IMG/VR virus record: IMGVR_UViG_3300006201_000010
Location: 1 to 64,000 of that record
Source of the DNA: a virus
Taxonomy: Duplodnaviria; Caudoviricetes
Direction: 5' to 3' (one strand)
DNA: 64,000 nucleotides
Below are positions 1 through 63,241 of the stretch, one piece after another (the stretch's first letter is position 1; each line of letters begins with the position of its first letter). Under the pieces are notes generated by a model. It was not told where the DNA came from, made no database searches, and saw only the letters and a program-made list of their open reading frames with translations. The position numbers and the translations under genes were made by a program.

Positions 1-18
1 CATTTATTCCTCTCTTCC

Positions 19-41
19 CCCCCCCCGACGCGCGGGTGGGG
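19..41 (-). other. GC hairpin downstream of DGR variable region 1; one arm is a G10 tract (17-26)
   Basis: Minus strand CCCCACCCG-cgcgt-CGGGGGGGG: 9-bp stem with one mismatch, 5-nt loop, 26 nt after the VR end. Confidence 0.65.
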
Positions 42-49
42 ATTGTAGA

Positions 50-979
50 TTATGCGATTGTGAAGCGGGGGCGAAGGTAGTCCTCGCTGACCGCGTCGCC
101 GTTGTCCGCACGGCCATTGTCGCCCACAAAGCAGAAGTACCCAGCCGAGGCTACGTCACGCAGCCAGTAATATTCGCTGTTAATCAAGTCAGCAGTATTT
201 AAGCGGAATATCGGAAGTTGGTTTTTAGCAGTACCTGTATCAAAACCGCTTGAAGACCAAATAGTTCCGCCAAAAACTTCCATTTCCGACATAAGAACCG
301 CCTGAACGTCAACCCATGCCCAACTTGACGAAGCACCTGTAGCCTGCCCGAAGCGATTATATCGAGCACTATCTACTGCCGAAGATACAAGTTCTTTAAT
401 CGTTTGTAAGTGCGAGCCAAAAATATCATATAATTGCTCATTAATCGTACCGTTCGGATTGCCTGCGGTTGCTATAGGTCCAAGGATTGTTGTGTGCATT
501 TTTGAACCCTTATATCCGCCAGATGTTGTGGTGCTATTATTCATAGGCTGACAGTCACCAAAGTTTCTATCAGGAATTAAATCTAAGTGATTTTTCTTAT
601 ATGTGTAATAGTTACCCCAATGGCAGTTAAACCCTGCGATTTTGACAATATCTGTACCGCTATTATCACAATCGTCGCCAACCACTTTTACTACGCGAGG
701 CATTTTAATAAAATCGCCTATGTACAAATCCTCGAAAGGCGCAAAACCGTTTGTGCCCGCTATTCTGTCGTACAGCGATCCGTCGTTAAAGTACGACGTT
801 ATGTCCTTGCCACGGTAAATCGAGTTATGAAAACCCGCCGTATTAAGGTCTGCCGTATTAAGGATTGCATTAAACAGTTCTGCAAATTCAATCCTTTTTG
901 TTCCCTCTTCGCCGTCGTGAACTATTGACTGGTTCTTGGAAGGAACACCCTTTTGTAAGTCTTTGATGGTTATACCCAT
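50..979 (-). CDS. DUF6273-like C-type-lectin-fold tail/receptor-binding protein; DGR target 1
   Basis: HNSIYRGK...DLYIGD N-terminus and YWLRDV...FC.V...G.A....A......LRPRF C-terminus typical of Firmicutes phage DGR targets; last gene of the tail fibre module in the window. Confidence 0.8.
   Translation of the reverse strand: MGITIKDLQKGVPSKNQSIVHDGEEGTKRIEFAELFNAILNTADLNTAGFHNSIYRGKDITSYFNDGSLYDRIAGTNGFAPFEDLYIGDFIKMPRVVKVVGDDCDNSGTDIVKIAGFNCHWGNYYTYKKNHLDLIPDRNFGDCQPMNNSTTTSGGYKGSKMHTTILGPIATAGNPNGTINEQLYDIFGSHLQTIKELVSSAVDSARYNRFGQATGASSSWAWVDVQAVLMSEMEVFGGTIWSSSGFDTGTAKNQLPIFRLNTADLINSEYYWLRDVASAGYFCFVGDNGRADNGDAVSEDYLRPRFTIA
68..151 (-). repeat. DGR variable region VR1
   Basis: 67/84 nt identical to 48078-48161; all 17 differences are at codon positions 1 or 2. 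Confidence 0.85.
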
Positions 980-4803: not shown

Positions 4804-7629
4804 TTAGTCCTCGTCTGTGGTATTCTTTATTACCTTAGCTGTCAATATACCGAATTTACCCTCGTCTTTCTCTGCCGAATCGGGTAATTCAAATGTGGGC
4901 GCACTCATAACCTTTGGTGTCTTAGCAATAAGGACTTCCCTATCCTCGCCACCGAGAGCAAATGTTGTTCCGTTGTAAGGTAAAGGATATTTTGCAATAA
5001 GTTGACCAGTTGTTAAATCTACGTCGAAATCTACGCCAAGAACATCCTCGTCAACACGCCAGCCAACGTCTGTTGAAAGCTGAATAATTGTTACCTCACT
5101 TGCGTCGCCTATCTCTACCCAAGGCAAGGATATTTTCTTTTGCATTTGACGAGTTTTAAGGTTGGGCTCCATAGTAACAGCACCGTTCGTGTGTACCATT
5201 CTTATATGCCCTTCCATATCACGCATAAACAGTGTGTATGTGGTCGTTGAAAGGTCTTTGAGTTCTCTTTCAAGCTCTATACTGTCGTAGTACTCATCGT
5301 CGCTCACAATACCTATAAGGGCTTGCAGTGTGCCACTGTCATAATTCTGCACCGAACCCATTCTTGTCGGATAGCGCGTAAAATTCGCGGTTAGAGAGGG
5401 TGAATTGTTGTTTGATACAGAACCTTGCGAAATGTTGTACTCAAATATGTATTGCTTTACAACGTGATAAGCCTCGTCTTCTTCGCTGTATTCCGTAGCC
5501 AACAAGCTATAATTTTTAAATCTCGGCGATATAGTTTTTTCTATTTCGACTGAAGACATAAGCGCGCCATTGTTATCGTAGGCAAATAAATGATAGCGGT
5601 AGCTTTTGCCGCTCACAATACCAAAGTCTTTAAGGCGCGTAACGAGTGAACTTGTTTTAGCAATCACTTTTAATTCACTGCTACCTTCTTCTTGTCTATA
5701 TATACGGAACCCCCTATTTGTTGAAACAGTACCTATACCACCCTCAATATTGTAAGTGAAGTTTGCTGTCATATATAGTTGGTAGGTTTCGCTATTCCAA
5801 GACGGCTCAAACGTTGCGCCGCCACCTGCTCGTAATTCGTTCAAAATCGTATCGCCATTACCCTGAATTACGGAAATACAATCGCACCCTGCACCATTCT
5901 CGCCACCGTCTATCATTACGGAAGTAATCGCGTCCTGCGTGTACCGCACCGACGTTCTGGTCCAGTCTAACAACCTGTCGCCTTCGTATGAAAAAGCGTA
6001 AATATCTGTAGGCGTTATTAAAAGGGCGGTTTCTGAGTTGTCTGCTGCGATATTTAATTCGGCTTGAACATTGCTGCCGTTTGAGTTAAGAATATTTATC
6101 GCAATAAAGTTGCCTGTAACGTCTGAGTAGTCGTCTGCTATATCTATTACCCTGATATAGTACCCGACAAATTCTTCATCGTCCCACTGCTCTCTAATTT
6201 CGCAAATATACCCTTCTTCTGTAACGCACAAATCGCCGTTTTGGGGTGGCGGGTTAGTCGGCGTAAATTCGTTTAACGTTAAGTCATATCTTTGCTGTCC
6301 TACGCTTAAATCGTCGTAAGGGTAGTTCCAAGTATATTTGATTTTAGGGGAAATTCTTGACGCGGTTATTCTGCCGTTATTTATATTCAAGAAATTGCCC
6401 TTGGGGGTAGCGTCATTTATTCTACCCTTCCATAAGACAGCCCACGGTCCCGTGAAGTTCATAGGGTTGTCTGTAACCTGATTCCAAGTTATTGTTGTAT
6501 TTGCGGGTAACGTAACCGAGCCATTAGCCAGTGTATAAGTCCCGCTGGCGCGCGCCGGGATAATAGTTGCATTATCAAGCACATCCCACGCAAGACCGAC
6601 ACTGTTCTCCGAGCGGTAATATTCTGCTGAAAATGAACCTGAATAAACGTCGGCTGTATAGCTCACGCTAAATCCAACCCAGCCCGAACTGATTTGTATG
6701 CCTGATTCTGTTTCAACCGTACAGCGCACTGCATAGTCTGTGTTGTTGAATAAGCCGTCGAGTTCGTAGGCAAGCACTGACGTATAAATGTTGCCCGTGT
6801 CCGCTAAGTGGTTACTTCTATCGTGCCCGTCAGCAAGTTCCCACCGTACCCACTTAATCGCATCGTCTTGTGCTTGACTATAATCTGCCGTAAACTCTGC
6901 AAATGCAGTATTCAATGTTTCGCCGTCATTTACGCTTAACTGCAGTGTGGGGTGTGTCCTTGTAATTATTGCTGATTCTGAAATCTGTTGTACGAAGTCA
7001 ACGCCAAAATCGGCATTATATTGAGGCTGGTCGCCCCAAATTCTTATTGCATTTTCGGGCGCGGTGCCGTTTGCATTAAAGCCCGCAGTAGTAAGAACTA
7101 TGCGTTTTGTGTTGCCTTCTCGTGTTTCAATCCACCCAACGCCGTTTGTAAAGCTGTAATAGAATGTTATGCTGTCGTAATCTTCGTTTACTGCAAAATA
7201 GACCGCGCCGTTAGCGTACTCGTCGCTGTACTGATCCATAAGGAAATAATACATTTTGCCTCTTTGTGGCGCGGTGAGAGGTATTGAAACTACGCTATTT
7301 TGCGCTTTAAACCATTGTGTAATTCTAAACTTATAATCGTTGCCGTCTGCCAGTCCGAATTCACTTGCCCAAGTTCCGCCTGATATGTAAGAAAAGTAAA
7401 CAGATTTACCGCGTTGGTCGGTACCGTTAAAGGGGCACCTTGTTGTTAAATAACCTGTCGATTTAATAAAATTAGACTGTGCGTTGTTGGCGTACATATC
7501 AATTTGAAAGCCTTGTAACGCGCTATTGCCGTTTACTTGCCATTGAATATTTACTTGGTCGCTCGCCGAAATCGTACCGCTGTTTGTAAATGTTGACGGT
7601 ATTATTTGATTAGGCTCGTAAATCGCCAT
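4804..7629 (-). CDS. Large tail protein (distal tail/FN3-like beta-rich)
   Basis: 941 aa, directly after tape measure; FN3-like FRIYR...DFGIVSGKSYRYHL motif. Confidence 0.65.
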   Translation of the reverse strand: MAIYEPNQIIPSTFTNSGTISASDQVNIQWQVNGNSALQGFQIDMYANNAQSNFIKSTGYLTTRCPFNGTDQRGKSVYFSYISGGTWASEFGLADGNDYKFRITQWFKAQNSVVSIPLTAPQRGKMYYFLMDQYSDEYANGAVYFAVNEDYDSITFYYSFTNGVGWIETREGNTKRIVLTTAGFNANGTAPENAIRIWGDQPQYNADFGVDFVQQISESAIITRTHPTLQLSVNDGETLNTAFAEFTADYSQAQDDAIKWVRWELADGHDRSNHLADTGNIYTSVLAYELDGLFNNTDYAVRCTVETESGIQISSGWVGFSVSYTADVYSGSFSAEYYRSENSVGLAWDVLDNATIIPARASGTYTLANGSVTLPANTTITWNQVTDNPMNFTGPWAVLWKGRINDATPKGNFLNINNGRITASRISPKIKYTWNYPYDDLSVGQQRYDLTLNEFTPTNPPPQNGDLCVTEEGYICEIREQWDDEEFVGYYIRVIDIADDYSDVTGNFIAINILNSNGSNVQAELNIAADNSETALLITPTDIYAFSYEGDRLLDWTRTSVRYTQDAITSVMIDGGENGAGCDCISVIQGNGDTILNELRAGGGATFEPSWNSETYQLYMTANFTYNIEGGIGTVSTNRGFRIYRQEEGSSELKVIAKTSSLVTRLKDFGIVSGKSYRYHLFAYDNNGALMSSVEIEKTISPRFKNYSLLATEYSEEDEAYHVVKQYIFEYNISQGSVSNNNSPSLTANFTRYPTRMGSVQNYDSGTLQALIGIVSDDEYYDSIELERELKDLSTTTYTLFMRDMEGHIRMVHTNGAVTMEPNLKTRQMQKKISLPWVEIGDASEVTIIQLSTDVGWRVDEDVLGVDFDVDLTTGQLIAKYPLPYNGTTFALGGEDREVLIAKTPKVMSAPTFELPDSAEKDEGKFGILTAKVIKNTTDED

Positions 7630-12445: not shown

Positions 12446-12471
12446 AAACTAACTCTCTTAATTGCTAAAAT

Positions 12472-12549
12472 AAAAGGCTATGAATACCACACCACTGCAG
12501 TACTCATAGCCCCTTTTGGCTCTTGCCGTTGCCCACTTGCAACGGCGAT
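12472..12549 (-). ncRNA. Recurrent structured RNA element, copy B
   Basis: 12485-12549 is a 65-bp exact repeat of 25816-25880; two hairpins followed by a U-tract. Confidence 0.65.
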
Positions 12550-19251: not shown

Positions 19252-19980
19252 TTATATTAACCCCGATGACGGGAGTATTTTTCTGATTGCAAGGTTTCTT
19301 TCCAAAGCTCTCATTGCGCTGTTGAGGTCGCTTTTGTACCGGGCAAGACGTTCAGTATCCGTCTTTTCCTTGTTCGCCCTGTTCTGCTCGCTGAATGACC
19401 TATCTTCCACTTTTGAAACATTTGAAAGCCAGTCATTGTTAAAGCGCGTCTGCCATACAACTTGGAAACAAAGCCCAAGTATTCGCATTATTTCAACGGA
19501 AAGGTCTTCTTTAAAGTAACCGTCCGTGTAGAAGTCCATATTGAATACGGTACCTTTGGGTATCGGGTTTTCTGCACTGGCCGTAAAAGTAATTATGCCG
19601 TTTTCGCTATCGTATTTTACAAGATCCATCGGCGTTAGAATTACACGTTCGCGCTTATCGATGGTTTCTATTTTACAACTGAAAAGTTCGTAGCCTGCGC
19701 CGTTCTCTAATGCAACGTTTGTTTCTTCCGTAATGTCTTCTTCGAGTATATATTTTGTGCTGCCGTATATCGGCTCAATAAGTTTCGGTGAATCGGGTGT
19801 ACCCATTAAATAGGGTATCATTCCGCTTGGTGTAGTAAAGTTAGGAATAGCGGCTTGCAGATATGACCACATACGGCGAGCATAAAGCGGCATATTCTCT
19901 CTTGCTAAAGCGTCGAGATTTATGTCGTCGATAAGAATACTGCAGTATTGAGTTATAACTTTTAAAATGGGTGTCGCCAT
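19252..19980 (-). CDS. Head-tail adaptor-like protein
   Basis: Position after the capsid genes; C-terminal FS...+AN.......motif like SPbeta-type adaptors. Confidence 0.5.
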   Translation of the reverse strand: MATPILKVITQYCSILIDDINLDALARENMPLYARRMWSYLQAAIPNFTTPSGMIPYLMGTPDSPKLIEPIYGSTKYILEEDITEETNVALENGAGYELFSCKIETIDKRERVILTPMDLVKYDSENGIITFTASAENPIPKGTVFNMDFYTDGYFKEDLSVEIMRILGLCFQVVWQTRFNNDWLSNVSKVEDRSFSEQNRANKEKTDTERLARYKSDLNSAMRALERNLAIRKILPSSGLI

Positions 19981-25793: not shown

Positions 25794-25803
25794 AAAATGA
25801 ATT

Positions 25804-25880
25804 AAGGGCTACGGGTACCACACCACTGCAGTACTCATAGCCCCTTTTGGCTCTTGCCGTTGCCCACTTGCAACGGCGAT
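25804..25880 (-). ncRNA. Recurrent structured RNA element, copy C
   Basis: 65 bp identical to copy B; the distal stem strand differs but mostly keeps pairing. Confidence 0.65.
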
Positions 25881-48056: not shown

Positions 48057-48824
48057 TTAGATACCGATTTGGAAATGGGGGCGAAGGTAGTACTCGCCGT
48101 CCGCGCTGTCGTAGTCCGCATAGCCATCGCTGTACACATCGCAGAAGTACACAGCCGAGGCAACCGAGCGAGTCCACTGCCATCTGCCGTACTCTCCGTC
48201 ACGGCAACCCGCAATGCGGTTGCGCCAGTCCTCTTTATAGAGTTCAAACTGTTCGCCCTCCTCGTACATTGCATGAATCTTTCTGCCGTGCAATTCAAAC
48301 TCCGACGGAATGAATACTTTGTCTTCCAAGAATTCTCCGTTGCCTACGTCAATTTTGGTCGGAATTATGTATTTTGCAAGGTCGTCGGGTAGCAACGCAA
48401 GGAAGTCTTCGTTGAGCCACTTGCGAGCAAGTGTCTTTGCATATCCCCCTTTAGTGGTACAACTTTTGTTCATTGCAATTCGCCCGTCGCCGTCGTTTGT
48501 ACCATACAAATCTAAAAGATTAAGAATAACCGCGTTGTCTTTTCTGTGAGTAATTTGTACCGTATAAAACTCACCGTTTTTTAAGGTAATATTCTTTTTT
48601 GCGCCTAAACCTAAAGCCTTTCCACTCTTAGTTTTTAAAATCTCAATAATCTCGTCCCAACTCTTACTGTTAAGGTCTATGGCAATAGCGGGTAGTGGAT
48701 GGTTTACCTCTATGAGCTTACTGCAGGTAGGACACTTTATTGCTGGGATAATATCCGACTCGTCAAATTCCATTGCTGTAAGACAGCCATTACATGTTGT
48801 TACATTCCCTGTGATTACTTTCAT
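48057..48824 (-). CDS. Zinc-ribbon + DUF6273-like C-type-lectin-fold protein; DGR target 2 (early region)
   Basis: N-terminal CxxC...CxxC; W.+...R.WLN..F...LP; KVFIPSEFEL; WTRSV...FC.V...G.A....A....YLRPHF. Confidence 0.8.
   Translation of the reverse strand: MKVITGNVTTCNGCLTAMEFDESDIIPAIKCPTCSKLIEVNHPLPAIAIDLNSKSWDEIIEILKTKSGKALGLGAKKNITLKNGEFYTVQITHRKDNAVILNLLDLYGTNDGDGRIAMNKSCTTKGGYAKTLARKWLNEDFLALLPDDLAKYIIPTKIDVGNGEFLEDKVFIPSEFELHGRKIHAMYEEGEQFELYKEDWRNRIAGCRDGEYGRWQWTRSVASAVYFCDVYSDGYADYDSADGEYYLRPHFQIGI
48078..48161 (-). repeat. DGR variable region VR2
   Basis: Shares all 28 third-codon bases with VR1; flanks are not alignable. Confidence 0.85.
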
Positions 48825-49795
48825 AAATTCTCCTTGTTAAAGTAAATTTCCCTTATTGTTTTTCCGTCCTTGCGCGGCACATAGTCCATGAATTCGCAAG
48901 TTCGGAATAGAATTCTGTTGTTGCACCACCGTTGCAAATCTCTTATGATTTGCGGGGCGGTATTTTTGCGGTAAATTCTTATGTCGGGCAAAAAACCCAG
49001 TTTTCTCACAGCTTGCACACGGTAAAGGTCTTGCTCTATCGTTGTGTTGAAATTTGTTAGTATGTAAACGATTTGCTTACTGTCGCCACCACCAACAATC
49101 TCTTTGTAAACCGAAAGACCTTTAATGATTGCCTTTTCGTTTTTCATAAAGTCGAAAGCGAAGTGCGTCCGCTTTGCCTTAATCTTTTTTAAGAGGTCGG
49201 CAACTTCTCGCGTAATAAATCTCGCATCGAGTCCTTGGTTGAAATTCACGTTCGCCTTACTATCTGCGAGCTGTTGCAGAAGTTCCATTCGGTCTTTGCA
49301 AGCAAGCAGGTTTGCGTCAAGCAGTTCAATATTTTTCTGCCCTTTCCAAAACTCTGACAAATCAGCAACCTTTTGACTGCATATTCCCTCTTTCTTGCTC
49401 ACAATGCAGAAGTCACAGTTGTTACAGCAACCCCGTGTAAGAAAGCCGTAAGCGGTATCCTTAGTGAGTTCGGGGTATAGACTGTAATCGGGGTAAATGT
49501 GTTCTATCTCGTCGGGTAGCACGGGGTCGCGGTCTTTATGGTAAACTTCTTTTCCGTTCTCAACCGTTATTGCAAAACCAGTTCCGCCGTAAACTATTTC
49601 GTCGGCTTGTAAGCAGGAAATCGGCATTTCCGAATACTCGTCGCCAAAAACCTTGCTGACATAGATTTTGTCGTAATGTTTTAAAGGCAATACAAACTCT
49701 ACCGAATCGCCACGCGCCTTGTGCCACGCTGATATTTTCATTAAGGGCAGGTTCGGGAAGTTATGACTATCAACGTCGAATAAACCGATATTCAT
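48821..49795 (-). CDS. Radical SAM protein
   Basis: TRGCCNNCDFC (CxxxCxxC); FPNLPLMKISAWHK phage family N-terminus. Confidence 0.85.
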   Translation of the reverse strand: MNIGLFDVDSHNFPNLPLMKISAWHKARGDSVEFVLPLKHYDKIYVSKVFGDEYSEMPISCLQADEIVYGGTGFAITVENGKEVYHKDRDPVLPDEIEHIYPDYSLYPELTKDTAYGFLTRGCCNNCDFCIVSKKEGICSQKVADLSEFWKGQKNIELLDANLLACKDRMELLQQLADSKANVNFNQGLDARFITREVADLLKKIKAKRTHFAFDFMKNEKAIIKGLSVYKEIVGGGDSKQIVYILTNFNTTIEQDLYRVQAVRKLGFLPDIRIYRKNTAPQIIRDLQRWCNNRILFRTCEFMDYVPRKDGKTIREIYFNKENL

Positions 49796-54270: not shown

Positions 54271-55272
54271 TTATTTTATGCCGCTATCGGCACCCTGATT
54301 AAAGAGGTTAATCTGTGTACCCCCCCCCGCGACTCTCTTTTTGATAATGGGAATGTATTCGGGGGAAAGTTCTATGAGAATGAAATCTCTGCCGTTTTCC
54401 TTTGCTACTTCGCCAGTAGTCCCACTGCCTGCAAACGGGTCAAGCACCGTTCCGCCCACTCTACTGCCCGCAAGAATGCAGGGTTTGATTAAGTCTTTCG
54501 GGAATGTTGCGAAGTGTGCACCTTTGAATGGTTTAGTGGTTACGTCCCAAACGTCGCGTTTGCGCCGTGTGGGTCTGAAATCGTAAGCGTGTCCACTCTT
54601 TGTTCTGTAAAACTTATCGGGGTTCTCGGTGTATTTCTTACCGCCGTATCGAGGTAATTTTTCACCAGTCTGTTCCGTCGGCTCTTTAAAACGTTTTGAC
54701 GTATAGTCAACAACTGGTTCTTCAATAGCCTTGTAATCGAAGTAGTAATGCGCCGATTTTGAAAGCAAGAAAATGTATTCGTGCGATTTGGTACAGCGGT
54801 CCGTAACGCTTTCAGGCATAGGGTTTGGTTTGTGCCAAATTATGTCCTGCCGTAAATACCAGCCGTCCGCCCTTAGTGCAAGAGCAAGCAACCAAGGAAT
54901 ACCCATTAAGTCTTTCGGTTTCATTCCAAGAGAAGAAGGCTTTATAAGTTCGTGCTTATGTGTTCCGAGAATGCCTTTGTTTGTTGCTTGTATCTTTGCA
55001 AGCGGAGTCGTTTGTCCTTTACCTTTTCCGCTACCCGCGTAACTGTCCGCTATGTTGACCCATAATGTGCCGTCAGACTTTAAAACGCGCCGAACTTCGC
55101 GGAATATATCAACGAGCTTTTCTATGTACTCGTCAACCGTCTTTTCAAGCCCGATTTGCCCCTCTACGCCGTAATCTCTCAACTGAAAGTATGGCGGTGA
55201 GGTTACACAGCAATCAACGCTGTTTGACGGTATAGTTTTAAGTTTTTCAAGAGCTTCGCCTTGTATAATCAC
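54271..55272 (-). CDS. DNA methyltransferase, N4-C type (beta class), with in-frame G9 (54320-54328) before C-terminal QINLF
   Basis: TSPPY, HFATFP, DPFAGSGTT. Confidence 0.9.
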   Translation of the reverse strand: MIIQGEALEKLKTIPSNSVDCCVTSPPYFQLRDYGVEGQIGLEKTVDEYIEKLVDIFREVRRVLKSDGTLWVNIADSYAGSGKGKGQTTPLAKIQATNKGILGTHKHELIKPSSLGMKPKDLMGIPWLLALALRADGWYLRQDIIWHKPNPMPESVTDRCTKSHEYIFLLSKSAHYYFDYKAIEEPVVDYTSKRFKEPTEQTGEKLPRYGGKKYTENPDKFYRTKSGHAYDFRPTRRKRDVWDVTTKPFKGAHFATFPKDLIKPCILAGSRVGGTVLDPFAGSGTTGEVAKENGRDFILIELSPEYIPIIKKRVAGGGTQINLFNQGADSGIK

Positions 55273-57074
55273 GCAGCCACCTTTTTCTTGCGCTTTCCCT
55301 GCGCCGACGCGGTTTTATCGAATTCCAGATTAAGGTCTTTCATTGTCGGTATATTGTTATCAACTACCGCAAGTTCAGGTACATTCGCTTTAACGAGAGC
55401 CGTAGCAACGGGCGGACATACCGCATTTCCGAGCCTTGCAATTTGTTTGGATTTGTTGTACGCTTTGCCGATTTTACTTTCTATGTCAATGCAGTAATCA
55501 GCGGGGAAGCCTTGGGTGAGTTTCAGTTCTTCGGGTTCAAGCATTCTCATTCCAACGTCGGAAATAAAATACTGTACGCCATTGATTTCAAAAATGAGAA
55601 GTTCGTCCTCGGCTATGTTGTAACCTGCATAGTTGTTCAGTAATTCGCGGACCTCGTTCCACTTTCCGAGATTTTTCGTATCGCCAACTTTCTGCAGATA
55701 AGTGCTTACTAATACTTCGTGTCCTTTCGCTGTTACCGTAGGGAATTGCTCTCTCAAATCAGAGCATCCCATGTGATTACGCAATACACATAAATGCTGT
55801 TCGACGAGATAGTGACGAGGCTCAACCGTTACTGTCGGCAGTGGTTTATCGGGACTGCTTGCGTGGTCTGCGCCGCCGTAATAGTGCACGATATTTGCCG
55901 TCATAAGGTGTTCGTGATTTGTGCCCGTAACAGTGGGTGCGGGTTCACTCATACTGCTACCCCTTCCGTCTGCGCCGTCGCCGTATCTGCTTGAAAGGTT
56001 GACAGAAACCAGCGCATTATGGTCAACCCCCGTTACAGTCGGAGCAGGTTCGTTTATGTCTGCCCCTTTCTGGTGCTCACCGCTGAAATGTTTCGCCAGA
56101 TATTTAGCCGCAAACTTGGGTTCGATAAGGTAATGGTGATTTGCCGAAGTTTGCGTCGACATAGGCTTGTTCGGGTCTTGCGCCGTATTCGAGTAGTTCA
56201 TTTCCATAATGAACGGCTGAGGGCTTTTAATTACAAACTTATCAAGTCCGCGCGCGATTCTGCGCAATGTGTTGACCGCAAGCCCTTTCTTTCTGTCGAA
56301 AATTGAGGGACATTTTAGCAGCCAGTTAATACAGTCGGCGGCTGTTCTGTAAGGCTCTAAGCCCTCACTCTCGCCGTGTGTAGGCGCGGGCCACACGATA
56401 GGCTTTTTGTCGCAACGAGCAATAAGGTAGAAACGCTTTCTTATTGTGGGCGCGCCGTAATCGCAGGCTTTAAGCACTTTCCATTCGACTTCGTAACCGA
56501 GCGCGCGCAGTTGCTCAACAAATCTGTTGAATGTCTGCCCGGCGCGTTTTTTATCGGGTTCAAACTGCTGCTGTTCTGCCGAAAGCACTTCGCCTTTTTC
56601 GGCGGTTATGTACTTAGTTTTGCCTCCCACTTTTATGATTTCTTTTACACAGCGTCCATTTACGCGAATAGGCTTTAAGGGTCCCCAAGTCGTAAATTCT
56701 TCGACGTTTTCAAGAATGATTACACGGGGACGGACCATTCCAGCCCATTTGAGCGCAATCCACGCAAGACCGCGTATATTCTTCTTGACGGGCGTATTAC
56801 CTTTCGCTTTGGAAAAGTGGGTGCAGTCGGGCGAAAGCCACATAAGACCTACGGATCGCCCTTGCGTAATTTCTTTCGGGTTTACACCCCACACGTCTTC
56901 CATAAGGTGTTGCGTGTAAGGGTGATTAACTCCGTGCATTGCTATTGCATCGGGGTTGTGGTTTATCGCAACGTCAACAGGCACACCGAGCGCAAGTTCT
57001 ATTCCCGTGCTTGCGCCGCCGCCGCCAGCGAAGTTGTCAACTATCATTTCACGCAGAAGGTTGTCTTGATACAT
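55269..57074 (-). CDS. dcm: Large C5-cytosine methyltransferase with repeated variable-region modules
   Basis: DNFAGGGG, SPDCTHFS, ENVEEF, TIRKR, GNAV; five P.(P/S)T(V/Q)T modules. Confidence 0.88.
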   Translation of the reverse strand: MYQDNLLREMIVDNFAGGGGASTGIELALGVPVDVAINHNPDAIAMHGVNHPYTQHLMEDVWGVNPKEITQGRSVGLMWLSPDCTHFSKAKGNTPVKKNIRGLAWIALKWAGMVRPRVIILENVEEFTTWGPLKPIRVNGRCVKEIIKVGGKTKYITAEKGEVLSAEQQQFEPDKKRAGQTFNRFVEQLRALGYEVEWKVLKACDYGAPTIRKRFYLIARCDKKPIVWPAPTHGESEGLEPYRTAADCINWLLKCPSIFDRKKGLAVNTLRRIARGLDKFVIKSPQPFIMEMNYSNTAQDPNKPMSTQTSANHHYLIEPKFAAKYLAKHFSGEHQKGADINEPAPTVTGVDHNALVSVNLSSRYGDGADGRGSSMSEPAPTVTGTNHEHLMTANIVHYYGGADHASSPDKPLPTVTVEPRHYLVEQHLCVLRNHMGCSDLREQFPTVTAKGHEVLVSTYLQKVGDTKNLGKWNEVRELLNNYAGYNIAEDELLIFEINGVQYFISDVGMRMLEPEELKLTQGFPADYCIDIESKIGKAYNKSKQIARLGNAVCPPVATALVKANVPELAVVDNNIPTMKDLNLEFDKTASAQGKRKKKVAA

Positions 57075-60644: not shown

Positions 60645-60673
60645 ATTATATAGGAACTTTCCTGCATTGTCAA
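60645..60673 (-). promoter_or_regulatory. Leftward lytic promoter
   Basis: Perfect TTGACA-17-TATAAT. Confidence 0.8.
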
Positions 60674-60720
60674 CTATTTTTGCAGGAAATTTTCTAAATT
60701 ATTTTTTTAGGAGAATTACT

Positions 60721-61137
60721 ATGGATAAAGCAACTGAAATCATTATTGAACTTATGACACAACGCGGACTTTCCGCCCGCCAGTTAGAATCGTCGGCTAA
60801 TTTATCGAATGCAAGCATTCAGGCGTGGAAAAGCGGAAAGGCACGCCCCTCGGTAGATGCACTTGTTAAGCTGTCGGACTACTTTGGTGTATCGGTTGAC
60901 TTCCTTTTGGGTCACGAAGTGCAAGAAAAAAAGTCGTCCCTTACGGAACGACCTGCTTATGATATTGCCGAAAAGTTTGTTAGCGAGTTCGGCTCACTGC
61001 TCTCGGAAAAGAATTTTATAGACTTCACAAAGCTCTACAATGTAATGAACGAGAACCAGAAGACGTTTTTACTTGCCAGAACGATAGGAATGTTGAATGG
61101 GCAAGGTATAAATACTCAAGCCATTGTCGGCTACTAA
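60721..61137 (+). CDS. CI-like XRE repressor
   Basis: GLSARQL...A.LS...I..WKSGK..PSVD.L.KLSDYFGVSVDFLLG; AGGAG RBS. Confidence 0.85.
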   Translation: MDKATEIIIELMTQRGLSARQLESSANLSNASIQAWKSGKARPSVDALVKLSDYFGVSVDFLLGHEVQEKKSSLTERPAYDIAEKFVSEFGSLLSEKNFIDFTKLYNVMNENQKTFLLARTIGMLNGQGINTQAIVGY

Positions 61138-61794: not shown

Positions 61795-61882
61795 ACTACC
61801 CCACCGCCGTGCTTTATTGAGCCGATTACTCGATTAAAGTATAATTTCCCTTACGAATTTATTTTTGGAGGAAATTATACAA

Positions 61883-63241
61883 ATGAACCAATTTATCAAA
61901 GACTGCTTATCGAACATTGCCAAAAATTCGGAAGCCATTTCTGCCGCCTCGCAGGGCATAAACACAGCCGTCATAGCTATTTTAGGCTATACTGCCGGGC
62001 AACAGGACGCGCAAGACTTTGGTGGTATCTTTAATGCAGCAGAATCGTTAAACTCTTTTACTCAGGTAGAGAATGGGTCGCAAAATATCGTTTCGGTAAA
62101 ACCTTTAATTGAGGTGATAAAAGAAATGATAATTGAACTCAAACTCAAAGGCTCAGTCCGCGAACGTGAAAACGGGCTGATTGAATTCCGTAACCAACAA
62201 CTCGGTTCGACTTACGGGAGGGACGAAAATGAAATAAAAGAAAAGTTATTAAGGAAAATTCGGGCACTGAAAAGCCACAGAAAATTACCGCAACAGCAAA
62301 ATAAGAAAAAATTCCCTTTACTCTCGGAATTCTATACGCAACGCTACTTGCCTTATAAACAGAGCCAAAAGCGAGCAGAAAACACTTTAAAGGGAATTGA
62401 GTACAACTATAAGTACATAATTGAGCAAGGCTTTGATAAGCCACTCAACGAGTACACGGCGAAAGACATTAAGGACTTCCTTTTTGCGATAGATAAGACA
62501 AGGAAACGCCAGATTATTCAGGGAATGCTCAACAACCTTTTCAAATACGCAGTGTCGGAATCGCTCTTAACGGTAAACCCCTGCACCGCCATTGAAAAAA
62601 TGGAGCATGATACGAATATGGGCACGTCCTTTTCATTTGTCGAGCAAGCGCGATATTTCAAAAGGCTTTTTGCGGACGAGAAAATCAACTACCAGCTTAA
62701 ATGCTATTATATTTTTACATATTTGGTCGGCAGTCGAAGAAATGAGGGTCTTGACGTTATTTTTTTGGACGCGGATATGGAAGAAAAGCTCTTAAAAGTG
62801 AACGGCACCAAAACCGACGGATCGCTTAGACAAATTCCTTTATTTCCGTTCGTTGAAAAACTGCTCTCTACTCTTACCCCCAACAAGAAAGGTCGTTACT
62901 TCCCTTTTACCGAGCGGGCCGCAGATGGTGTGTTCAGTAAGTTTATGAAAGAATTAGGAATGGACCATAAACTTCACGACCTGCGCCACTCGTTCGGCAC
63001 TATTCAAATCTGCTGTAATAAAATAGACGTTAAAACCGTTTCGCTTTGGATGGGGCATTCCAACATTGAAACTACTTTAAAGTACTATACCCACCCTGAG
63101 CAACTCGATAAGGCGACTTTTTTACGCGGCGATTTGTCGGAAGACGAGAAAACGGTCATTTATAAGGGTAAATATGCCGAAATACTGCAGTTGATAGATA
63201 GTTTTCTAACCGCTCATACCCAAAATATACCCAAAAAATAA
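61883..63241 (+). CDS. int: Tyrosine integrase
   Basis: Catalytic R (GSRRNE), K (GTKT), HDLRH, MGHS, YY; GGAGG RBS. Confidence 0.93.
   Translation: MNQFIKDCLSNIAKNSEAISAASQGINTAVIAILGYTAGQQDAQDFGGIFNAAESLNSFTQVENGSQNIVSVKPLIEVIKEMIIELKLKGSVRERENGLIEFRNQQLGSTYGRDENEIKEKLLRKIRALKSHRKLPQQQNKKKFPLLSEFYTQRYLPYKQSQKRAENTLKGIEYNYKYIIEQGFDKPLNEYTAKDIKDFLFAIDKTRKRQIIQGMLNNLFKYAVSESLLTVNPCTAIEKMEHDTNMGTSFSFVEQARYFKRLFADEKINYQLKCYYIFTYLVGSRRNEGLDVIFLDADMEEKLLKVNGTKTDGSLRQIPLFPFVEKLLSTLTPNKKGRYFPFTERAADGVFSKFMKELGMDHKLHDLRHSFGTIQICCNKIDVKTVSLWMGHSNIETTLKYYTHPEQLDKATFLRGDLSEDEKTVIYKGKYAEILQLIDSFLTAHTQNIPKK
63217..63236 (+). repeat. Integrase arm-type sites (left)
   Basis: TACCCAAAA twice with 11-bp period, in the last integrase codons. 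Confidence 0.65.

Follow-up and report, generated by a model that had tools for sequence, protein, structure and literature searches.

A hypervariable lectin-fold protein encoded among the early genes of a phage: a probable second, remote DGR target

Introduction

Nearly all phage DGR targets that are understood are receptor-binding proteins. The canonical case is Mtd of Bordetella phage BPP-1, which forms trimers at the tip of the tail fibre and is encoded next to its cassette; its fold is of the C-type-lectin type, its VR is C-terminal, and a GC-rich IMH and a hairpin come after the VR. For many phage DGRs, targets that do not adjoin the cassette but lie within 50 kb have been found (Wu et al., 2018). 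DGRs with two DUF6273 targets have also been described, namely those of nd4/nd12, with the target tgt2 (PMC10743442), Lelie/CP11 (PMC11792537) and Toutatisvirus (bioRxiv 10.1101/2024.10.15.618418). In these gut Firmicute phages, a single TR serves two DUF6273 proteins, in which the VR is C-terminal and lies in a C-lec-like domain. The second VR gene of Toutatisvirus is a core gene located 17.5 kb from the TR, and tgt2 of nd4/nd12 lies within the cassette, its products having been read as receptor-binding proteins. Another example is the second DGR target of Quimbyvirus (ORF 80/84), which is a distal C-type lectin surrounded by four methyltransferases, and for which a non-structural role in phage-host conflict has been proposed (Benler et al., 2021, PMC8008677). 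Outside phages, the C-lec sensors of bacterial conflict systems (PMC10907252) provide a precedent for cytoplasmic binding domains diversified by DGRs, although these sensors are cellular and fused to signalling or effector domains, and the likeness to the protein treated here is one of description.

Closest to the present locus is that of Roseburia phage Shimadzu (LR596903.1), in which a TR at 19582–19710 matches both VR1, in the tail-fibre gene orf22, and VR2, in orf43. The changes from TR to VR2 are all at adenines. The gene orf43 overlaps an upstream DNA methyltransferase gene and precedes Erf; it is reported as being of 'unknown function', and its VR2 carried mutations in 2% of the reads from virions and in 47% of those from mouse viromes (Cornuault et al., bioRxiv 10.1101/575076).

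The DNA analysed here (the window) comprises bases 1–64000 of a linear IMG/VR virus record of 85,792 bp (85.8 kb). An earlier note had singled out a gene at 48057..48824 of the minus strand, hereafter target 2, as a DGR target placed among early genes. As in Mtd, the VR of its product is C-terminal and part of a C-type-lectin-like domain, with a GC-rich IMH and a hairpin downstream; between the two proteins, however, there was neither a sequence match nor a significant fold match. It shares with the Quimbyvirus target, to which it is likened by description, a distal position outside the structural module with methyltransferases around, although the latter belongs to a Bacteroides phage and lies on the opposite strand. 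For the nd4/nd12, Lelie/CP11 and Toutatisvirus targets, no report mentions a zinc ribbon or a location within a replication operon. Four features distinguish target 2: the fusion to a zinc ribbon, the overlap with a radical SAM gene, a separation of 48 kb between the two targets and a cassette that is missing from the record. The idea of a non-structural role in phage-host conflict is not new, as it was proposed for Quimbyvirus by Benler et al. (2021).

Hypervariability of the two repeats

Target 2 (P0001) encodes 255 aa, with an N-terminal zinc ribbon, a DUF6273 domain and a C-terminal variable region. This region corresponds to VR2, a variable repeat of 85 nt at 48077..48161 (minus strand), whose variable codons are those of residues 225–246 (48087–48152). 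A second 85-nt repeat with the same invariant scaffold, VR1, is found at 67..151 (minus strand), at the end of target 1 (P0002; 50..979, minus strand), a gene that closes the tail module and gives a weak DUF6273 match. The two repeats differ at 17 positions, nine of them in the first codon position, eight in the second and none in the third, and the 90 nt upstream of each are only 33% identical.

The same residues vary in nature. In a collection of 5.8 billion proteins, the 90% cluster of target 2 has 225 members; among the 16 of these that were read, a pair differs on average at 11.3 positions inside residues 225–247 versus 0.125 outside. Indeed, outside residues 225–246 the 16 proteins are identical save for one substitution, and inside them all differ. 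A second target 2 cluster (85% identity) shows the same pattern, and in the target 1 cluster (64 members) variation falls at the positions homologous to those of VR2. At the DNA level, a second IMG/VR sample (contigs L003 and L010) has 18 mismatches to the window in 64 nt of VR2 versus 3 in the surrounding ~3.9 kb, its target 2 protein being 100% identical outside the VR. The earlier note had named a VR invariant across related phages as what would speak against its reading; the VR is instead hypervariable. A search with the DNA pattern of the VR scaffold returned only the L003 contig among viral contigs, and two chance matches among metagenome contigs.

The type of variation is also restricted. 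At the ten fully variable positions, Lys, Glu, Gln, Met and Trp account for none of 390 residues, and this is the set that NNC/NNT codons cannot encode. The other variable positions show only the residue sets expected of codons with a single adenine, such as E/V/G or D/G/V. All the variation at the VRs, which affects some 17 codons, fits A-only mutagenesis of AAY, GAG and GAC codons, and the VR2 alleles read are all in frame, full length and rich in Tyr, Gly, Asp, Ser and Asn, like binding sites. NNC/NNT-restricted variation confined to the VR is the DGR signature, and there is little doubt that target 2 is a genuine DGR target. The claim of the earlier note is upheld in this form, as a naturally diversified target of DGR type, the label being drawn from the pattern of variation in a record that holds no TR or RT.

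The elements that flank the repeats agree with this assignment. VR2 ends in a GC-rich 3' block (CTTCGCCCCC; 48077..48086, minus strand) that is IMH-like and identical in VR1, VR2 and L003. The 50-nt gap after the target 2 stop codon contains a hairpin with a 9-bp stem and a 5-nt loop (48032..48054, minus strand), with a DNA folding energy of -9.1 kcal/mol (z -3.4) that none of 200 shuffles equalled. As no T-run accompanies it on the coding strand, this hairpin resembles the target-recognition hairpins of DGRs rather than a terminator. Downstream of VR1 lies a GC-rich imperfect hairpin (16..42, minus strand) of -11.7 kcal/mol but with a z of only -0.5. Both VRs thus have a GC-rich IMH at the 3' end and a hairpin downstream, that of VR1 being the weaker.

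A different origin of the diversity, by recombination between VR1 and VR2 or by another hypermutation process, would accommodate a record with no TR or RT, as well as the L003 allele of VR2 (6080–6310), in which three third codon positions have changed (GGC to GGG and TAC to TAT among them) in a way not accounted for by template adenines; these changes may be ordinary point mutations or non-A errors of the RT. However, dozens of distinct alleles could not arise by exchange between two copies, only the first two positions of fixed codons vary, giving residue sets that are exactly those of an AAY/GAG/GAC template, and homologous systems have TRs with A-only changes. Such an origin is therefore very improbable.

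Architecture of the target 2 protein

The zinc ribbon claimed by the earlier note is present at the N-terminus, with four cysteines (48702..48824, minus strand; residues 1–41, or more narrowly about 7–39). It is conserved, with two CxxC knuckles on beta-hairpins formed by C11, C14, C31 and C34. The rest of the protein, from about residue 61 to 255, is a DUF6273 (C-type-lectin-like) domain (48060..48644, minus strand), which matches PF19789 above the gathering score and resembles solved DUF6273 or C-lec domains in its fold. Hydropathy agrees with the earlier note's claim that signal peptide and TM segment are missing: no hydrophobic, TM or signal-like segment was found in target 2, the maximum Kyte-Doolittle mean over 19 residues being 0.71, a figure that speaks to hydropathy only. 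Nor was any trimerisation or virion-anchoring domain recognised. The structure prediction called for by the earlier note gave a model of middling quality, with a pLDDT of 68.9 for the whole protein that falls below 50 throughout the VR. With the whole model, Foldseek found no significant match in the PDB, and a profile search had 0 hits among PDB sequences; the structural neighbours in BFVD include tail-collar fibre and receptor-binding proteins. Similarity to structural proteins went no further than the domain, involving the DUF6273 parts of tail or Hoc-like proteins.

The family is large, and its combination with a zinc ribbon is rare. A profile search of 1.84 billion representatives detected 6,147 DUF6273-type proteins (E <= 0.001), and in only about 12 clusters at 50% identity did the match start in the zinc ribbon. 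A 'DUF6273/zinc-ribbon' cluster in Bacillota was seen in the ESM Atlas, which is a lead only. The domain also occurs in up to 12 repeats in giant proteins (P0179, of 3,973 aa, P0181, P0184 and others), and in the ENA protein P0022 it is combined with glutamyl-tRNA-synthetase domains. A scan of genome contigs with the target 2 family detected no relative, and megablast of the target 2 region and the tail end against GenBank phages gave no match.

Early-operon context

A perfect sigma-70 consensus promoter (60645..60673, minus strand; identified by its match to the consensus only) faces the early operon and is divergent from an HTH repressor gene (60667–61137, plus strand). The minus-strand genes that follow it encode an SSB-like protein, two DNA methyltransferases, a RecE-like exonuclease, phrog_674, RecT and a replisome organiser, and then a G39P-like helicase loader, a radical SAM protein, target 2, a product of unknown function, YopX and a Holliday-junction resolvase; three more DNA methyltransferases lie further downstream. 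The placement of target 2 among early genes, as first read, is thus confirmed, and some 48 kb separate it from target 1 in the tail module.

The radical SAM gene (P0003; 48821..49795, minus strand) belongs to PHROG 9298 (2.4e-99) and encodes a CX3CX2C motif. Its stop codon overlaps the start of target 2 as ATGA, with an AAGGAG ribosome-binding site upstream. The coupling that the earlier note had pointed out is therefore real in this phage, but it is lineage-specific, being absent from the three comparator phages described below. A conserved functional pair of radical SAM protein and target 2 was considered and rejected: PHROG 9298 members are common in Clostridium, Bacteroides and archaeal viruses that have no DUF6273 protein, and this, together with their absence from the comparators, indicates that the coupling is local.

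Several side observations concern the surrounding DNA. Five DNA methyltransferase genes are found in a 20-kb early region (blocks 40517–43425 and 54271–57074). Divergence from the sister sample L010 is strongest in the first of these blocks (40.0–43.9 kb) and in phrog_674 (52.5–53.4 kb), which suggests mosaic exchange; the methyltransferase block 54271–57074 has 1 mismatch to L010. An 81-nt direct repeat (12469–12549 and 25800–25880), 94% identical and intergenic, is located upstream of the tape-measure and head modules; the earlier note read it as a possible structured RNA. Beyond the integrase gene (61865–63241), positions 64001–85792 of the record make up 22 kb of mostly plus-strand ORFs with no RT or TR, and the record ends with a second tyrosine-recombinase-like ORF (84800–85726). 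This stretch may represent another element or flanking host DNA.

The same layout in other phages

Small DUF6273 DGR targets in the early region recur in at least three other phages. Over the domain, the orf43 product of Shimadzu is 35% identical to target 2; it too is small and DUF6273-like and has its VR at the C-terminus, and its gene, located in the early region, overlaps an upstream DNA-modification gene. In that phage, the TR is common to orf43 and to a tail-fibre target that adjoins the avd-TR-RT cassette, and diversification of VR2 has been shown experimentally. Differences also exist, since orf43 has no zinc ribbon and the gene upstream encodes a DNA methyltransferase, not a radical SAM protein; furthermore, orf43 lies 14 kb from its cassette versus ~48 kb here, with both TR and RT present in the record. 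In Dulem virus 34, RT, TR and VR1 occupy 20.7–22.6 kb, and VR2, at 36.2 kb, belongs to a small DUF6273 gene whose immediate upstream neighbour encodes an MboIIA-type methyltransferase. The third phage, G002 (IMGVR_UViG_3300045988_156964), is a complete 61-kb genome with direct terminal repeats. Its small DUF6273 gene is flanked by methyltransferase fragments on one side and by phrog_674/RecT on the other, an order syntenic with the window; 44 kb away, a second VR is part of a protein that is at least 523 aa long. The two genes of G002 (loci L011:9926–10582 and C1:57913–58036) end in matching VR-like repeats that are 79% identical. A zinc ribbon was found in none of the three small targets of Shimadzu, Dulem virus 34 and G002.

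As a further observation, the gene directly upstream of the small early DUF6273 target encodes a SAM-dependent enzyme in all four phages, often with an overlap: a radical SAM protein here (48821–49795) and DNA methyltransferases in the others (L007, 7460–7801; L011, 9459–9923; L014, 5148–5957). This may be due to chance, given the density of methyltransferase genes, and two of the phages are related.

The missing avd-TR-RT cassette

No RT was detected in the 85.8-kb record, either as a PF00078 match or by tblastn with the RTs of Shimadzu and Taranis, and tblastn with the Shimadzu Avd had no hit. When the entire record was scanned for a TR with position weights, only VR1 and VR2 and no third copy came up, so the case for A-to-N changes in this phage is indirect. 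The cause may lie at the left end of the record. The tail module runs from the tape measure through the tail proteins and the host-specificity fibre to target 1, which is last, and the record stops 49 nt after the target 1 stop codon, on the ATG of the next gene (1..3, minus strand; cut by the record end), with its ribosome-binding site upstream (GAGAGGAA). Of 23 GTDB genomes that possess a target 1 homologue, 10 or more have Avd and a DGR-type RT located 0.3–1.8 kb downstream of it, and the order is the same in Shimadzu and Dulem virus 34. Since the record ends where its homologues carry the cassette, this has probably been cut off just left of the record start, and is not absent from the phage. 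Hypervariable repeats are known to break assemblies (Benler et al., 2021, PMC8008677). The TR would be expected left of the record start, its coding sense translating roughly as ASAENFCNVNNNGNANNNNADNENNLRP. The only queries used in tblastn for a lysis gene, two endolysins and a single holin-like protein, found none in the record. Contigs of up to 346 kb are known to carry proteins of the target 1 and target 2 clusters; the viral contigs scanned gave no match to target 1 or to the tail-fibre gene.

A true absence or loss of the cassette is possible as well, because the complete relative G002 has both VR genes and no RT; neither RT nor TR was found in that genome. The VR genes of G002 are possibly orphan DGR targets, served in trans or relict. 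Similarly, some Toutatisviruses have been reported to possess both targets but no DGR (preprint, bioRxiv 10.1101/2024.10.15.618418). These cases lend some weight to the view that target 2 is a hitch-hiker, its VR2 being rewritten only because it shares the IMH and hairpin of VR1, with variation of little or no benefit; in some lineages VR2 would no longer be rewritten, the cassette having been lost, and the job of the protein would be independent of variation. Data from Shimadzu point the same way, since selection on VR2 is weaker than on VR1 (bioRxiv 10.1101/575076) and VR2 alleles were nearly unselected in the mouse experiments. Against this, homologues of target 2 at only 35–50% identity keep the VR-bearing architecture, the conserved Cys and the core residues, the alleles are in frame, full length and of binding-site composition, and the arrangement persists in several phage lineages. 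Taken together, the hitch-hiker explanation appears improbable.

The pairing of the two targets has also been considered as a general feature and rejected, as five genomes with target 1 homologues have no second target of the zinc-ribbon/DUF6273 type.

Possible roles of target 2

The explanation favoured here, with modest confidence, is that target 2 is a second, remote DGR target that acts as a soluble variable binder in the infected cell and is most likely not part of the virion. In the proposed mechanism, RNA from a single TR would be reverse-transcribed with adenine-specific errors, and the mutagenised cDNA would home to either VR and replace it. About 17 residues on the exposed C-terminal surface of the DUF6273 binding domain would be redrawn in this way. 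Because target 2 is translated from the early operon, it is most likely made together with the replication, recombination and DNA-modification proteins, and the variable binder would then be present inside the cell along with the early gene products.

The non-virion, intracellular role as such is given about an even chance. Both the gene position and the lack of a signal peptide are compatible with incorporation into the virion, given that virion proteins also lack signal peptides and TM segments, so that their absence does not separate a cytoplasmic from a virion protein. Moreover, the DUF6273 proteins with an assigned role are all virion-bound or secreted (tentaclins, tail fibres, the N-terminal domain of an IgA peptidase and giant multi-repeat proteins).

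For these same reasons (all role-assigned relatives extracellular, and a missing signal peptide that is uninformative for a virion protein), some credence is kept for target 2 as a virion-associated or released accessory protein for receptor binding or adhesion, encoded off the late module. The zinc ribbon would dock to the tail or capsid, and diversification would widen adsorption, as in Mtd, the tentaclins and 'tgt2'. All DUF6273/C-lec DGR targets that have been interpreted functionally are surface binders, the published work on Toutatisvirus and on nd4/nd12 favours a receptor-binding role, and the VR scaffold is exactly that of the tail-module target; the tail-collar fibre and receptor-binding neighbours in BFVD fit as well. 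On the other hand, target 2 is translationally coupled in an early operon, with 48 kb between it and the tail genes, its early placement recurs in four phage lineages, and no trimerisation or virion-anchoring domain is recognisable in it. In addition, when Shimadzu isolates were selected for infectivity, VR1 alleles became fixed and those of VR2 did not (bioRxiv 10.1101/575076). An accessory virion protein is therefore regarded as possible but rather unlikely. Receptor-blocking superinfection exclusion of the T5 Llp type was also considered, and is unlikely on account of the missing export signal and of the independent variation of VR1 and VR2.

As for what an intracellular binder might do, target 2 had no hit to defence or anti-defence families in PADLOC, NCBIfam or other Pfam families, and its neighbours had none in PADLOC; no DGR targeting a known anti-defence protein was reported in a 2026 cohort study. 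The anti-defence idea for target 2 is circumstantial and rests on its neighbourhood only. A broader proposal, still doubtful, is that gut Firmicute phages keep an early, cytoplasmic, DGR-diversified lectin-fold binder directly 3' of a SAM-dependent DNA-modification enzyme as an adaptable factor for counter-defence or host takeover. Such a binder would neutralise variable host defence proteins or retarget the neighbouring modification enzyme.

Biological significance

The locus adds a well-documented member to the set of early-region DGR targets, with hundreds of natural alleles, a fusion to a zinc ribbon and a placement that recurs in several lineages. The cultivable Shimadzu/Roseburia system offers a direct route to testing the intracellular idea. 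If a class of non-structural targets in the early region does exist, phages would use programmed hypermutation inside the cell too; and, were the binder to act in counter-defence, it would constitute an 'antibody-like' intracellular weapon that evolves in real time.
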